From: Sedimentisphaerales bacterium
Lineage (GTDB): Bacteria; Planctomycetota; Phycisphaerae; Sedimentisphaerales; Anaerobacaceae
Assembly (NCBI GenBank): GCA_963708075.1
Contig: OY970194.1
Location: forward strand, 160,001-224,000
Direction of reading: 5' to 3'
DNA length: 64,000 nucleotides
Positions 6,193 through 55,155 of the stretch are shown here, in pieces. A model generated the notes under the pieces. The model saw nothing but the letters and a program-made list of their open reading frames with translations, was not told the origin of the DNA and did no database searches. Position numbers and translations under genes: made by a program. Every line of letters begins with the position of its first letter. Within the stretch, counting starts at the first letter, position 1.

Positions 6193-6260
6193 TGTCACCC
6201 CCGCGCAGGCGGGGGTCCACGACCGTGGGTTTCTGGATTCCCGCCTTCGCGGGAATGACA
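6193..6260. repeat. Inverted REP doublet (GTCATTCCCGCGAAGGCGGGAATCC family)
   Basis: tgtcacccccgcgcaggcgggggtcca ... tggattcccgccttcgcgggaatgaca; related single copy at 52884-52909. Confidence 0.8.
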
Positions 6261-49440: not shown

Positions 49441-50499
49441 TCAAATACTTGTTGTTTTTCCCGCGGAGGTCCTGCCCAGTTGCAGGATTCTGGCCGGTTC
49501 TTCCGGGAACCCTGTGCGCGCGGACAGGTAGGCCGACTCGAGCACCGCCATGTTGTGGAGACCCTCCTGGGCGCTGGTGATCAGGCTCGGCTCCTCCGGG
49601 TTCGTTATGCTTCGTGCGAAGCTGCAGAGCAATCGCCGCATCGTGTCCGGCTCATCCTGGTCATACTGCCATCTCTGACTCTCCCGGCCGGTGCACGTGT
49701 TCAGCGTGACGAGGTCCCCCGTGACCGTCAGTAGGGCATCTTTGCCGTACACTTTCAAGGACAGCTCGTTCGGCCCCACCTCGTTACGGCGCGTGGCGGT
49801 GATGCTGCCCACCAATGTGTCGGTGAATCGCAGGGAAACCACGGAGGTATCCTCCGTGAGGTACAGCCGCAACTGCTTGTCGGGAGCCCCGCTGGCGTTC
49901 AGCGCATACACCTGCTGGGGCACGGGGAAACTCCAGAGGATCTGATCGATGAGCGGGTAGGCGTCATGCAGGAGCACTCCGCCCCCGGCTAGTTGTGGGT
50001 CGGTGTACCAGGAGGGCCGATCCGCTACAGCGATGCTGCAGTACGCTTTGATCAGGTAGATACCCTCGATGTGGCCCTGCAGGATCAACTCGTGTGCGGT
50101 GATGTAGCTGGGATTGAATCTCGCGGGGTTGGCAACGGCGAACTTGACCTTCTCGCTCTCGGCCATCTGCACGTATTCGCCGGCCTCCTCGAAATTCCTT
50201 GCGGGCGGCGCGAGCTTGAGGATGTTGAACTTCCTCTTGATGGCCGTCTTGAGGTGCTCGCCGTAGGCATGGATATCGGTGGCCAGCAACAGACAATCGA
50301 GCTGATTCTGAACGATCAGTTGCCGGTAGTCGGTAAATGCCTCACATTTATATCTGGCGGCCGCCTTCTCCGCCTTCTGAGGGTCCTGGTCAGCCACGGC
50401 CTTGATCTGAAAACAACCGGACCGTGACGCCGCGTCAAGAAGGAGCCAGCCCTTTTGGTCGAGACCGAGTACCGCCGCAGTAAGAGTCTCTGTTGCCAT
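49441..50499 (-). CDS. Gfo/Idh/MocA-fold protein with degenerate motifs
   Basis: Rossmann-like N-terminus, AGGGVLL, TEDTS, AYLSARTG. Confidence 0.8.
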   Translation of the reverse strand: MATETLTAAVLGLDQKGWLLLDAASRSGCFQIKAVADQDPQKAEKAAARYKCEAFTDYRQLIVQNQLDCLLLATDIHAYGEHLKTAIKRKFNILKLAPPARNFEEAGEYVQMAESEKVKFAVANPARFNPSYITAHELILQGHIEGIYLIKAYCSIAVADRPSWYTDPQLAGGGVLLHDAYPLIDQILWSFPVPQQVYALNASGAPDKQLRLYLTEDTSVVSLRFTDTLVGSITATRRNEVGPNELSLKVYGKDALLTVTGDLVTLNTCTGRESQRWQYDQDEPDTMRRLLCSFARSITNPEEPSLITSAQEGLHNMAVLESAYLSARTGFPEEPARILQLGRTSAGKTTSI

Positions 50500-50508
50500 G
50501 CATCGCCA

Positions 50509-51783
50509 TCAATCCCGATTGTTGTTTTTGTGCGGTATGATGAAGTGCTCCGGCACGGGGAACTGCGAGCACAGCAGAAGCACTTCTTTGCCAATTTCCT
50601 CGATCATCGGCTCGTTGTCGATATTCTCGGCCACCCTGTGGATGAACGTGGCGACCTGCCGGGCTTCCGCCTCCTTGAAGCCGCGGGTGGTGATCGCCGG
50701 CGTCCCGACGCGCAGGCCGCTCGGATTGAACGGCGGGGCCGGATCACCGGGGATCGTGTTGTAATTCGAGACGATCCGCGCCCGGTCGAGAGCCTTGGCC
50801 AGCTTCTTGCCGGGAATACCCTTGTTCCTCAGGTCGATCAGGATCAGATGATTATCGGTCCCACCCGAAACGAGATTGAAGCCATACTCAAGAAGCTTTT
50901 CCGCCAGCGCCTTGGCATTCTTGACGATCTGTTTGGCGTAGGCGACAAACTCCGGCGTGTCGGCCTCCGCCAAAGCTACGGCGACCGCCGTCAGCGTGTG
51001 CATGTGCGGGCCGCCTTGAAGACCCGGGAAAACCGCACGATCCACCTTGTCGGCATGTTCCGCCTTGCACAGCAGCATGCCTCCGCGCGGACCGCGCAGC
51101 GTCTTGTGCGTGGTCGTGGATACGATGTCGGCGTACGGCACGGGGCTTTGGTGGATGCCCGCGACCACGAGGCCGGCGATATGTGCGATATCGCTGACAT
51201 GATATGCCCCGATTTCACGGGCGATCTCGCCAAAGGTCTTGAAATCGATGGCTCTCGGATAGGCGGTCGCCCCGGAGATAATGATCCTGGGACGGTGCTT
51301 TTTCGCCAGATCGCGAATGAGGTCGTAGTCGAGCCTGCCCGTTTCCGTGTTGAGGGTATAGGATACGGAGTTATAGAACTTGCTGGTCAGCGAGACTTTC
51401 CAGCCGTGGGTAAGGTGTCCGCCGTGTACGAGCGACATTCCCATGATCATGTCGTGCGGCTCGATGAGAGCGGAATACGCAGCCATGTTCGCTACCGACC
51501 CCGAGTACGGCTGCACATTCGCGTGATCGGCCTTGAAGAGCTTCTTGGCCCGCTCCTGTGCCACCTTCTCGATCAGGTCGGTAACCTGCTGTCCTTCGTA
51601 GTATCGTCTGCCGGGGTATCCCTCGGCGTATTTGTTTGTCAGACAGCTTGACGAAGCCATCATGACGGCCCGTGACACGTAGTTCTCCGACGGGATCAGG
51701 CGGATCGAACCGCTCTGCCGGGTCTCTTCCTGTCGGATGAGCTCGTAGATCTGCGGATCATACTGCTCGAGAGCTGTCCTCAT
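50509..51783 (-). CDS. glyA: Serine hydroxymethyltransferase
   Basis: LIPSEN, NKYAEGYPG, GGHLTHG, TTHKTLRGPRGG, FPGLQGGP. Confidence 0.97.
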   Translation of the reverse strand: MRTALEQYDPQIYELIRQEETRQSGSIRLIPSENYVSRAVMMASSSCLTNKYAEGYPGRRYYEGQQVTDLIEKVAQERAKKLFKADHANVQPYSGSVANMAAYSALIEPHDMIMGMSLVHGGHLTHGWKVSLTSKFYNSVSYTLNTETGRLDYDLIRDLAKKHRPRIIISGATAYPRAIDFKTFGEIAREIGAYHVSDIAHIAGLVVAGIHQSPVPYADIVSTTTHKTLRGPRGGMLLCKAEHADKVDRAVFPGLQGGPHMHTLTAVAVALAEADTPEFVAYAKQIVKNAKALAEKLLEYGFNLVSGGTDNHLILIDLRNKGIPGKKLAKALDRARIVSNYNTIPGDPAPPFNPSGLRVGTPAITTRGFKEAEARQVATFIHRVAENIDNEPMIEEIGKEVLLLCSQFPVPEHFIIPHKNNNRD

Positions 51784-51857
51784 GGTACTTCTCCACACGG
51801 TAACGGCACATCCCTGCCGGCGGCCATGGCGATTGAAGTCAAATAACAATAGCGGCT

Positions 51858-51886
51858 CTTATAGCAGAACCGGCCTTCCTCCACAA
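51858..51886 (-). promoter_or_regulatory. Possible glyA promoter
   Basis: TTGTGG, 17 nt, TATAAG with extended -10 TG on the minus strand. Confidence 0.4.
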
Positions 51887-51947
51887 GCTTTTATTCAGTG
51901 GAGTTCTGCCAAGGTGTGCGGCCGGTATTCGGCGGCAGAACCACGGG

Positions 51948-52655
51948 ATTGGCTTTGTTTCACACGAGCCACCGCCCCCTCCGCTGGCTTTGTTTCACAC
52001 AAGACCCCTTCCTGGATTTGGCTTTGTTTCGCACGACCGCTGAATAGCACGTAACGCCTTTCCTGCAAAGGACTTCCACCACACCCCGCCTCCGCAAGAT
52101 TGGCTTTGTTTCACACAGTAGGGCGGGCGTCCCCGCTCGCCCCGCCCGGCAGGGACAAATTGGCTTTGTTTCGCGCGATACATCCTCCGCTCCGTCGGGT
52201 GTGCCGTGCACACCACCTGTCCGGCAGGGCGAATTGGCTTTGTTTCACAGCCTCGCCCATCCGCTGCTGGCCTTTCAATCCGCAATCCGCAATCCAGGGC
52301 CTCCAGCCCTGCCAATTGGCTTTGTTCCACAGAATGGGTGCTGTCGACCGTTGCAGGCATCGATCCTTCAATCCGCATTTCGCAATCCCAGGGCCCCCGG
52401 CCCACAATTGGCTTTGTTTCGCGCACGGGCCCTCGCGTAGGATGGGCTGTGCCCACCGCCTGTCCGGCAGGCCAAATTGGGTTTGTCTTGCATGATAGCC
52501 TCTGTAGTCCTTTGAGTGAGGCAAATTGGCTTTGTTTCGCGCCGGGTTAGCCACCATGTGGCCCAACCGCCCTCGGCTGGGATCAACCCGAGGCCGGGGG
52601 ACTACCTGACACTTCAAACTTGACACTCCTTTCGATTTGGCTTTGTTTCACAGAT
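51948..52655 (-). repeat. Array of 11 direct repeats (plus strand TTGGCTTTGTTTCRC; minus strand GYGAAACAAAGCCAA) with irregular spacers
   Basis: Cores at about 51949, 51984, 52018, 52100, 52160, 52234, 52316, 52408, 52477 (degenerate), 52526, 52637. Confidence 0.92.
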
Positions 52656-52773
52656 TCGTTCACCCGCTCCCGGCCTTTCAATCCGCAATCCCCAGATCCT
52701 GCCACATGGCCATACGCTCCGACTTACCTGATCTGGCAGTCATTACCCTGTTTTTCCACTATCACACATACGT

Positions 52774-52789
52774 TGCAAATTCTGTGCCA
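52774..52789 (-). promoter_or_regulatory. sigma54 (-24/-12) promoter facing the repeat array
   Basis: Minus strand reads TGGCAC-AGAAT-TTGCA, matching TGGCAC-N5-TTGCW. Confidence 0.7.
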
Positions 52790-53208
52790 GGTGAACACCC
52801 CCGAATCCGGCGTCTCATCCCGGTTGTCGCCCGGGACAGGCAGCCCCATATGGCAGAGCCACTGAAACGCAGATTCCGATTTTGTCATTCCTGCGAAAGC
52901 AGGAATCCAACCTTAGCCGCAGAGGACTCCAGCCGTCTACTGTCAGCCGCCAACTGAGAACTGACAACTGCTCTTTCATCCGCAGATTTCACGGATTTCC
53001 CAGCCCGGCCTTCGGCCGGAACCAATGGCGTTTAACGCTTTGCGGGTACCGGCGGGGAGATGATGGAACCAGGCGGTCAGCCGGGGCTTTCTCCACCTTC
53101 CCCGCCGGTACCTTGAACGCGATAAACGCACGCTTGGCTTCTGCCGTAACACTCGCCTCGGCAATAACTTATGGAGAAGCTGCACAACGATCTGGAAAAG
53201 ACTTTCAC

Positions 53209-53351
53209 CGGCAACACCAAAATCCAAGGCCTGACCCCTTTTCCTCTCCATGAAGTGTGCTGTCCCCGGAATTCCACAATGGCCCGCACCCTAAAAAGTA
53301 CCGTACCCGTTTGATTCCCCTCGGCAACACCAAAATCCAAAGCCTGACCCC
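53209..53351 (+). repeat. 30-bp direct repeat ending in CCTGACCCC (candidate mobile-element end)
   Basis: cggcaacaccaaaatccaa(g/a)gcctgacccc at 53209-53238 and 53322-53351. Confidence 0.8.
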
Positions 53352-53423
53352 GTTTCTCCCTTTTCTCCCGTCAGATTTGACGTATTGGTCGCCGCGTCAT
53401 GGCCGGGCTCGCTGAGAGGGGCT

Positions 53424-53825
53424 CTATGGGTATTCGCTCTGTACCTCCCTCAATATAGAGTCCAGTTCCCCCGCTGGGAATCCGCTCAGACAGTTGCACC
53501 TACCACAGACGAAAGGCAATGTCCCACCGGGAATGGTGGCCATTCCGACCTCGCAAGAAGGGCAATACACGGAGCGTTCATAACCTCCCGAGGGTTTCCG
53601 CTTGAACTTGACGCCTCGGTATTCGACGAACTGGCGGCTCGGCATCTTTTCCTTGAGCATAGATATCTCTTCTCTCGCATTCGCAAGTTCTATCTGAAGA
53701 TCAGCCTTCTCCTTTTCGGCTTTCGCGAGCTCATCTTTCACGAGGCCCAGACGCTCTCTGAGGACAGCGCTTGATCCATGCTCGTTGATCGCTTTTTCGA
53801 GTAGCGACAAAGGATTTAGATTCAC
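53424..53825 (-). CDS. Hypothetical protein: coiled coil plus Zn finger
   Basis: GAGGTG RBS before GTG 53825; heptad-rich segment; CPSC...CGRC. Confidence 0.7.
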   Translation of the reverse strand: MNLNPLSLLEKAINEHGSSAVLRERLGLVKDELAKAEKEKADLQIELANAREEISMLKEKMPSRQFVEYRGVKFKRKPSGGYERSVYCPSCEVGMATIPGGTLPFVCGRCNCLSGFPAGELDSILREVQSEYP

Positions 53826-53935
53826 GATTGACACCTCAACGTTATTCAACCAAGATCATCAGTTGCATCCATTTATTATTGAACGTTCCCTCCACGTCTT
53901 GGCCACTATGGTCTGTCCTTGGCCCTCACGAAAGC

Positions 53936-54607
53936 CTACTTCACAATACTGACTATGACCGCAATAACCGACACTAGAAAGCTAAGCAGCGAAATCGTGA
54001 GTTCGGGAGTCCACTCAATAGGTTTCCGATCACGAAAGAATATCCTGACAAACGGGAACCACTTTTGCCGATATACCTGGATGCCGATCACAGCGAAGGG
54101 CAGGCAAGCTCCGCTCATCAGACCGCAGACCAGCCAATCCTCCCGGCTGAGCGCGAAACCGCCTAATAGGCCAAACAATAACGCCAGCATACCCAGTGCG
54201 ACAGGCATGATCTGCGGCTTCAGCCACCCGTACCATGGTCGTCGAGTGTCAAAGAAGGTGCGTAGCTGAGCGAGTTTGCCATGGTACCAAGTTGCATCCA
54301 TGGAGTGAATCTGGCAGTCTATATAACTGTGATAGCAGGTGAGATGAAGACCCGCCACGATCTCCTTACCGCTCCAATACTGGACTTCCGCACTAAACTT
54401 GTCTGTGTATGGTGGCAGACCACCTCCCAAAAGATCCGTGAGGGAGTCCGCCTTTTTCCTGGTGGAGCCGAGGGTAAACGAGTACTCTGAGTCCACCTTG
54501 GTAAACGTGCCGCCCTCGGACAACAGGGCAGCCAGAGCGAGCAGGTCGGCATTGTACAACACGGCTGGTCCATACCAGACAATCTCACGCAATTCGGTCC
54601 TTACCAT
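53936..54607 (-). CDS. Hypothetical protein with three C-terminal TM helices
   Basis: 223-aa ORF in an AT-richer segment; hydrophobic C-terminal helices. Confidence 0.7.
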   Translation of the reverse strand: MVRTELREIVWYGPAVLYNADLLALAALLSEGGTFTKVDSEYSFTLGSTRKKADSLTDLLGGGLPPYTDKFSAEVQYWSGKEIVAGLHLTCYHSYIDCQIHSMDATWYHGKLAQLRTFFDTRRPWYGWLKPQIMPVALGMLALLFGLLGGFALSREDWLVCGLMSGACLPFAVIGIQVYRQKWFPFVRIFFRDRKPIEWTPELTISLLSFLVSVIAVIVSIVK

Positions 54608-54988
54608 AGGTCGTTACTCACCCATATATTCGGAGACTAAGGTGCCAGGTACATCGTTCGAACTCACTCCTTGGTCTCCAAAGCTGTCACGCTCGACCTT
54701 GACAAAGGCATTGTAGGCGAGACTTGCGCATGTGGCAAGGAAAAAGGCAATCAAGAAGATGGGGCAATAGATTGCAAGACCCGAGGGTCATCCATATAGG
54801 GTTCTTGGCAAGTAAAAAAACACTCTCTTTGAACCGAAAAATCTACCCCTATGAAACATCCGTATTTCGGTCTGCTTGTGTCTGCTGTTGTGCAGCGTGA
54901 CACTAACCTATCGAAACGTCCAGGCTCCATCGCCCTTTTTCGCTCCTGCGAAGTTCGTTGGAGCAACGTGTCGAGTCCGCCGGCCGAA

Positions 54989-55155
54989 ACAGAGGTGGGG
55001 GTCAACAGAGGTGGGGGTCAGACCTACGCATTTCACATTCTGGGAACTCGGGGACATGTGTGAGCAAGCCGTTGTCAAGACGGTCGCGGGATTTTTTCGC
55101 GGAAGTCCCAAACATCTATTCGGCGTCACGCGGTTATGGCCTCGCAAGACCAGAC
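54989..55155 (+). mobile_element. 16-bp tandem duplication plus GGGGTCAG end; possible decayed RAYT-type transposase 5' remnant
   Basis: acagaggtgggggtca twice (54989-55020), then GACCTACGCATTTCACATT and a broken MPRKTR-like start near 55137. Confidence 0.35.

Follow-up and report, generated by a model that had tools for sequence, protein, structure and literature searches.

Mosaic intergenic repeats are often assumed to be functionless. Enterobacterial BIMEs alternate the orientation of their REP units, small terminase (TerS) proteins bind arrays of short DNA repeats, and CrcZ and CrcY, which are RpoN-dependent and titrate Hfq/Crc, belong with CsrB and RsmZ among the sponge RNAs. Closest in architecture to the locus described here is the Neisseria NIME array. 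Its description (PMC1797815) has RS elements of more than 100 families with 20-bp dRS3 repeats between them, in dynamic arrays that are said not to be observed in non-neisserial genomes; a second account (PMC11893778) identifies part of the dRS3 repeats as NTS sites, cut by the small nuclease SsnA, and has the ssnA gene flanked by its own repeats. Here we analyse an array of short, one-directional repeats upstream of glyA in a 64,000-nucleotide stretch of the genome of a Sedimentisphaerales bacterium (Planctomycetota; contig OY970194.1, positions 160,001 to 224,000), hereafter the window, in whose numbering its features are given. A preliminary description of this stretch, made from the sequence alone, proposed the array as a candidate sigma-54-driven sponge RNA or a new repeat-array system. 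Its description of the array is borne out, its reading of it only in part: rather than standing alone as a sigma-54 'sponge' RNA, the locus belongs to a hitherto undescribed family of mosaic repeat arrays, one whose parent gene can be identified with unusual clarity.

A scan of the 64-kb window on both strands, allowing up to two mismatches, finds ten matches to GAAACAAAGCCAA on the minus strand at 51949-52649 (eight exact, two with one mismatch), where 0.90 are expected by chance, and none of 100 shuffles of the window reached ten copies. The cores lie at 52649-52637, 52538-52526, 52420-52408, 52328-52316 and 52246-52234 (cores 1-5) and at 52172-52160, 52112-52100, 52030-52018, 51996-51984 and 51961-51949 (cores 6-10), separated by modules of 21-105 nucleotides (nt). 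Their start-to-start spacing is 34-118 nt, or 34-111 nt once a degenerate eleventh core (AAGACAAACCCAA, minus strand, 52489-52477) splits the 118-nt interval, and the eleven same-orientation repeats with periods of about 34-111 nt first reported are therefore ten clear copies plus this degenerate one. The three sense frames of the array hold 6, 3 and 1 stops, in keeping with the earlier statement that no credible open reading frame (ORF) is present. Stops in every sense frame rule out a coding reading, and the array is no tandem coding repeat conserved at the amino-acid level. Rfam (4227 families, both strands of window positions 50000-55000) gave no match at E ≤ 1, consistent with the earlier failure to assign the array to a named family.

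The genome, a single contig of 7.5 Mb with 60% G+C on which the window is G000:C1:160001-224000, carries 204 exact copies of the 13-mer GAAACAAAGCCAA and no copy of its reversed control. Allowing up to two mismatches there are 283 cores in 38 arrays of 3-13 copies, confined to one strand within each array and alternating with modules of 21-112 nt. A logo built from the 283 copies widens the core to 18 nt, TGYGAAACAAAGCCAATT, which is asymmetric, as the first account of a non-palindromic repeat implied. This architecture, a short repeat with many spacer families in many dynamic arrays, is like that of NIME arrays, for which the two accounts report a short conserved repeat with many families of 19-214-bp spacer elements, many copy-variable arrays with small-repeat insertions, and a dedicated protein that recognises the repeat (a phage recombinase, or the SsnA nuclease for the NTS form). 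As described there, however, dRS3 is a 20-bp palindrome (ATTCCCN8GGGAAT) and NIME arrays have no fixed polarity, whereas the separating repeat here is the asymmetric TGYGAAACAAAGCCAATT, and for this reason the arrays cannot be counted as NIME members. They also differ in being one-directional, promoter-led, descended from the tail of a protein gene, and in another phylum.

The parent gene, which we label P0001 (G000:C1:940929 onward), encodes a helical protein of about 175 residues and is present in nine copies, all with an array behind them and one with a frameshift. Homology between the copies begins about 220 nt upstream of the start codon and continues through gene and array to a conserved trailer of about 150-180 nt that follows the last core (G000:C1:942026-942190 and the ends of six other gene-linked arrays). 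This trailer holds a T-arm-like hairpin, GCGG(T/C)TCGAATCCGC, and then CACCG; ARAGORN found no tRNA in it, and comparison with the 49 tRNAs of the genome gave only generic T-loop matches (11-13 nt). The other 29 of the 38 arrays have no gene body. Sorting by eye of the 300 nt upstream of all 38 arrays distinguishes class A leaders (11 arrays, including that of the window), which have a sigma-70-type promoter, class B leaders (13 arrays), in which TGCAAC-N16-GCGTCT, which looks like an extracytoplasmic function (ECF)-sigma promoter, stands ahead of AAATCAA/AAATCGT heptads, a ribosome-binding site and a start codon, and class C (nine arrays), whose upstream sequence is a protein gene's 3' end; the remaining five fall outside these classes. 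By this sorting 24 of the 29 gene-less arrays keep the promoter region of the unit, many of them with the ribosome site, start codon and a few codons as well (the leader at G000:C1:1388807 reads M..ARI..DRRDAGK). In class A and B leaders the gene is still present up to its first codons, with ribosome site and start codon, and these solo arrays therefore represent units minus the gene body. A separate, strict regular-expression census found promoters in the sense direction upstream of 17 of the 29 solo arrays, eight of sigma-70 type (all with a 17-nt spacer) and nine ECF-like, compared with three sigma-70 and no ECF-like sites in antisense and frequencies of 1.8% and 0.2% in random windows. In class B leaders (e.g. 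G000:C1:940870-940930) three to six AAATCAA or AAATCGT heptads stand between the ECF-like promoter and the P0001 ribosome-binding site, and the same-strand module heptads GATTGCG/GAATGCG resemble the reverse complement of these leader heptads.

The leader of the window array (52650..52773, minus strand) is what is left of the family gene's 5' end. It contains a ribosome site (GGAG, 52720-52717), an ATG (52707-52705) and a nine-codon ORF, MWQDLGIAD, with its stop at 52678, followed by a module of GGATTGC heptads, and it is homologous to leaders that retain M..ARI...RR.A.K from the N-terminus of the gene. All four of promoter region, ribosome site, start codon and a few codons are thus retained in this copy. 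The locus is in this light a gene-less copy of a repeated unit of gene and repeat tail, and its proposal as a stand-alone small RNA gene like CrcZ or CsrB does not hold.

In six of the eight intact gene copies the ORF spans the whole array and stops 94-100 nt past the last core, within the trailer. The open gene frame through the array (no stops, against 2-9 in the other two frames) and the recurrence of the trailer peptide (..RVAYHCHDIARSY) in homologues indicate that the repeat tails of intact genes are probably translated. The core is nevertheless conserved as nucleotides, since within one gene ORF it is read in two frames, as KQSQ and ETKPI, and since both cores of L123, a relative from another family of the same order, lie past the stop codon. 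A ribosome site and start can be recognised in 19 of the 29 solo arrays; the ORFs that begin there end early, and a single one of the 19 spans all its cores. Reading of the core as RNKAN prompted the idea of a target-site deletion exactly at the RRNAxKS codons of the gene, which was dropped because in several leaders these codons are kept and the first core follows at a distance of 10-14 codons. The variable C-termini of hundreds of 'hypothetical proteins' in public sets (P0002-P0240, 212-479 amino acids) come from ORFs running into repeat arrays, and REP-like hairpins appear in such proteins as the peptide TP(Y/C)GVTTN.

Gene and core also occur together in other genomes. P0001 homologues number 743 within the default length band of 104-333 residues and a further 119 of 334-479 residues, with no Pfam domain; those named are from metagenome-assembled genomes (MAGs) of Sedimentisphaerales, Phycisphaerae and Planctomycetaceae, and peptides encoded by the core appear in the tails of 10 of 12 homologues examined. 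Of 23 congeners, 21 have the gene in multiple copies, and a degenerate form of the core, RAAACRAASCCAAT, is present in all 23, at 6 to 794 copies (reversed control 0-1). Outside the family the only genomes with at least three cores, G033 and G036, are both among the three with a match to the gene, these co-occurrence counts being drawn from related genomes and not from independent samples. Exact core pairs 50-80 nt apart are found in MAGs of Pirellulales, Phycisphaerae, Planctomycetaceae and Bryobacterales, with the gene just upstream of the cores at four of these loci. Most congeners have one or two cores per gene, the pairs lying 90 nt apart and flanking a module type (module X, below), and the large arrays are lineage-specific expansions. 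Core matches in Clostridia and Thaumarchaeota proved to be coding ETKPK repeats, and those in Alphaproteobacteria an 18-bp tandem repeat; neither was counted as the same element. The latter, GAAACAAAGCCAAATCCC, forms perfect 18-bp tandem repeats of six to nine copies with the same 13-mer inside (L041, L019, L070, L071, L076 and L079; Hoeflea, Flavimaribacter and Rhizobiaceae), and its resemblance to the planctomycete core may be coincidence. The literature on intergenic repeats of Planctomycetes and Sedimentisphaerales, taken with paywalled papers and supplements outside its scope, yielded no description of the core or the system, and a search for the core sequence or its complement gave no bacterial context among the matches listed, which were primers and the like.

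A link to viral proteins comes from the N-terminus of P0001, where residues 3-46 have 57% identity, across 44 residues, with a 313-residue protein of a viral contig, encoded directly upstream of a large terminase (TerL; phrog_2, E 1.2e-13) and a Mu-type portal, i.e. at the small-terminase position of a TerS-TerL-portal arrangement. P0001 relatives occur at 17 loci in IMG/VR contigs, several sharing the N-terminal motif NAxKSTGPxTxEGK..NAxKHG only. Presence of this motif in a protein at the phage TerS position suggests that it may have a nucleic-acid-binding role. The likeness to a small terminase goes no further, as the remainder of P0001 shows no relation, the chromosomal copies have no packaging genes next to them, and P0001 does not belong to Terminase_4, matching no Pfam family at E ≤ 1. 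In the ESM Atlas there are only unnamed clusters, the nearest of them in Planctomycetota and Acidobacteriota.

The window array is one of the gene-less ('solo') forms of a unit that the genome carries 38 times and whose full order is promoter, ribosome-binding site and start codon, P0001 gene and one-directional array. We tentatively favour the following view. The array would probably be transcribed from the retained promoter, as a non-coding RNA, toward glyA; in this copy the ancestral sigma-70-type promoter would have been replaced by, or would double as, a sigma-54-type -24/-12 site. The core would be a recognition site in nucleic acid, whether RNA or DNA, most likely for P0001-family proteins, and the solo arrays may serve as multi-site platforms or decoys for such a protein, with whatever regulatory effect this might have. 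Slippage, or unequal exchange from one core to another, would lengthen and shorten the arrays, a change in size supported by tandem 87-nt units, which occur in runs of four to five and are about 90-94% identical.

Several observations weigh against this view. That P0001 binds the core is purely what we infer, and the protein matched nothing in Pfam (E ≤ 1), NCBIfam, PADLOC, PHROGs or a sequence profile search of the PDB. Its model, built from 44 sequences, is all-helical and moderately confident (predicted local distance difference test score 72), and Foldseek found nothing for it in the PDB at E ≤ 0.001; the Terminase_4 match of one viral relative, at 18.8 bits, is below the cut-off of 24.7. 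A leader of the window's sigma-54 type was not found in the 23 congeners searched, where the BLAST match to the leader was confined to its heptad part. Core counts differ about 100-fold between congeners, as for expanding selfish repeats. Some of the evidence goes against a function as RNA. The single-stranded A-rich sites proposed in the preliminary description are there insofar as the core is mostly unpaired in the predicted sense RNA (0.65 against 0.37 for spacers; 0.44 and 0.41 in antisense), but shuffling the spacers gives the same values, 0.65 for the core, so that this predicted accessibility reflects base composition alone. GC-rich hairpins are visible in many spacers, as had been noted, and single-mismatch hairpins on the sense strand have more A.C than G.T mismatches (9 to 2, in 29 stems only), opposite to the expectation for a selected sense RNA, which implies that the hairpins were not shaped as sense RNA; array hairpins look like REPs read on the other strand. 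No consensus RNA structure emerged for the core-X-core segment in 49 sequences from several genomes.

The strongest competitor holds that the arrays are inert relics, decaying tails of P0001 pseudogenes that spread selfishly by slippage or ectopic recombination at the 18-nt core and by REP-like insertions, and that have no function of their own. We regard this as somewhat unlikely. It accommodates the loss of the gene body, the stops in all frames and the variation in core number between species, and in its terms the tandem 87-nt units are recent amplification. It also accommodates the module sub-parts that lie outside arrays. The 245 spacers fall into 207 strict similarity groups, among which GGATTGC-like heptads, GAAGTGT repeats, REP-like GC hairpins with CTAC, the 87-nt unit and module X recur. 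Whole modules of the window array recur inside arrays only, always in the same orientation, as in module 1 (52539..52636, minus strand), which contains a GAAGTGT repeat and three GC hairpins and is one of a five-member array-only family of constant orientation. The hairpins or heptads within the modules are found elsewhere in the genome too, on both strands. Module 6 (52113..52159, minus strand), a REP-like GC hairpin followed by CTAC (GGGCGGGGCGAGCGGGGACGCCCGCCCTAC), is a case in point, its hairpin part of 25-26 nt having 14 occurrences outside arrays, on both strands. Modules of this kind, GC hairpins with CTAC (GTAG on the other strand) combined into mosaics, are the likeness between these arrays and BIMEs. 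We know of no BIMEs with a separate conserved core, a promoter or a parent gene. The relic explanation is further in line with the lack of replication-strand bias (16 of the 38 arrays on the leading strand), a distribution that also led us to reject a polar DNA motif of the KOPS or Chi kind. It does not readily explain why leaders that hardly align elsewhere have promoter hexamers still close to consensus, or why exact cores make up 67% of those in solo arrays (158/235; 36/48 in gene-linked arrays) when their surroundings, in the best solo-to-solo alignments, are 64-79% identical, a divergence that marks the solo arrays as old. At least 19 of the 29 solo arrays are, moreover, co-oriented with the next gene, and several of the ten calls of opposite orientation involve ORFs with low G+C at third codon positions that are probably spurious.

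Quite improbable, in our estimate, is a DNA cassette system with its crossovers at the core, by which the C-terminal tails of P0001 proteins would be remodelled, the solo arrays being reservoirs of modules, by analogy with shufflons, integron attC arrays, NIME/dRS3 or silent C-terminal cassettes. Such a system would fit the ORFs that remain open through the array in six of eight intact genes and end in the conserved trailer, the mosaic tails that differ between paralogues, the module families common to gene-linked and solo arrays, and a core kept in two reading frames. Yet most module families are private to one array class, solo and gene-linked arrays have no recent blocks (>95% identical) in common, direct repeats would favour deletion, and no recombinase was recognised in or beside the unit, homology ending about 220 nt upstream and at the trailer.

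One module deserves separate mention. Module X (..GGAAGTCCTTTGCAGGAAAGGCGTTACG..; 52031..52099, minus strand, between cores 7 and 8) belongs to a type kept across the genus and in other Planctomycetota MAGs, in which AAAGGAG-TT-ATG is conserved; of 46 copies 32 have the ATG, which is changed to ACG in the window, and in 32 the same frame is maintained up to and into the following core. In these copies (from the present genome and MAG loci) the ATG lies 31 nt before the next core, behind the Shine-Dalgarno-like AAAGGAG, and the core read from it gives ..R(R/Q)NKAN, which loosely recalls the N-terminus of the gene, M..ANRRNAxKS.

The -24/-12 motif from which the sponge proposal began, TGGCACAGAATTTGCA (52774..52789, minus strand), is indeed aimed into the array, 124 nt ahead of the first core. 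Overlapping with it is a sigma-70-like pair in degraded form, CTGGCA (52790-52785) and TGTGAT (52766-52761) on the minus strand with 18 nt between them, in which the A at the second -10 position is lost. The motif aligns exactly with TTGACA-17-TATGAT in the nine sister leaders aligned; an ECF-like promoter takes this place in other sister leaders. The one paralogous leader (G000:C1:1389238-1389266) retains all 11 consensus positions of the -24/-12 motif; the remainder of these two leaders is 71% identical (83/117), and other blocks there are equally conserved. The genome does have rpoN, as the proposal needed, and about nine sigma-54 activators, so use of sigma-54 is possible. A near-consensus motif, however, lies upstream of two of the 38 arrays only, that of the window and that at G000:C1:1388807. 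A loose pattern, with an expectation of 0.18 per 400 nt, adds no more than poor matches at five other arrays, and the strict pattern occurs 23 times in the genome where about 12 occurrences are estimated from base composition, which makes about half of them chance matches. As the other arrays have no near-consensus site, sigma-54 is not a property of the system, and the RpoN-dependent promoter that would be a constant feature of CrcZ-type RNAs is not one here; lack of an oriented sigma-54 site at other arrays is what the preliminary description itself had named as refuting its proposal. There may have been a switch of promoter class in one subfamily, and the odds that the window promoter is of sigma-54 or of weak sigma-70 type are roughly even. 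A stand-alone sigma-54-dependent RNA that titrates a global RNA-binding protein (Hfq or CsrA), as do CrcZ or CsrB, is very improbable, for while the near-consensus -24/-12 site in both leaders of the subclass, the presence of rpoN and activators, and A-rich cores predicted to be unpaired would give the array the look of those RNAs, i.e. a promoter-driven non-coding stretch with many unpaired A-rich or fixed motifs between hairpins, 36 of the 38 arrays are without the motif, about half of whose strict matches are at chance level, Rfam gave no match to any family, CrcZ and CsrB included, the core, at 18 nt, greatly exceeds the 4-8 nt of Hfq or CsrA motifs, and the array, one of 38, is a truncated gene tail. 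CRISPR arrays likewise have a promoter leader and then unidirectional direct repeats with variable spacers, but the repeats of about 23-47 nt and unique, near-constant spacers that define them were not found here (no search was aimed at cas genes): the repeat is of 13-18 nt and non-palindromic, the spacers of 21-112 nt belong to recurring families, the 38 loci are dispersed, and arrays can lie in ORFs.

Downstream of the array, and co-oriented with it, is glyA (50509..51783, minus strand; serine hydroxymethyltransferase, Pfam E 5.8e-160), whose ATG at 51783 is 166 nt past the last core. Of the sigma-70 promoter earlier ascribed to this gene, a sigma-70-like TTGTGG-17-TATAAG can be read by eye between array and glyA (51858..51886, minus strand) and may be glyA's own promoter; it is not among the sites of a stricter promoter scan. 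Upstream of the array, window positions 53400-54900 are of visibly lower G+C and hold two minus-strand ORFs with no Pfam match, one of 141 amino acids with CxxC pairs and one of 223 amino acids that is hydrophobic; this stretch looks like an acquired island. An inverted repeat of 31 nt, 84% complementary, lies at 53028-53058 and 53099-53129 with 40 nt between its arms. The genome also contains an NTS-like hairpin family that is separate from the array core: GATTCCYGC-N4-GCRGGAATGAC has 82 copies (reversed control 0), two of them in the window, at 52884-52907 (minus strand), about 95 nt upstream of the array's promoter, and at 6236-6259 (plus strand). The arms differ little from those of the Neisseria NTS/dRS3 site, which the single-stranded DNA nuclease SsnA cuts (PMC11893778). 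A small GIY-YIG ORF, in an open frame of 150 amino acids, is present at G000:C1:3460471-3460695.

The arrays of this planctomycete extend an architecture comparable to that of NIME to a second phylum. Three features set them apart from NIMEs: their polarity is strict, most of them have a promoter, and the gene from which they descend is clear. For annotation they mean that C-termini are unreliable wherever ORFs have been called across such arrays. If the core is the binding site of P0001, the family would offer a ready-made pair of protein and recognition site, and would explain the hundreds of 'hypothetical proteins' with read-through C-termini. It is conceivable, if unlikely, that Planctomycetota and Acidobacteriota have an as yet unrecognised two-part system in which a small protein with a terminase-like motif at its N-terminus recognises an 18-nt core both in the 3' tail of its own gene and in dozens of promoter-driven decoy arrays that have no gene and are placed before housekeeping genes such as glyA, the arrays setting the level of free protein or recruiting it to chosen loci. 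Were this so, it would be a partnership of protein and repeat comparable to Ssn/NTS or CsrA/CsrB, with a new fold and a new site.

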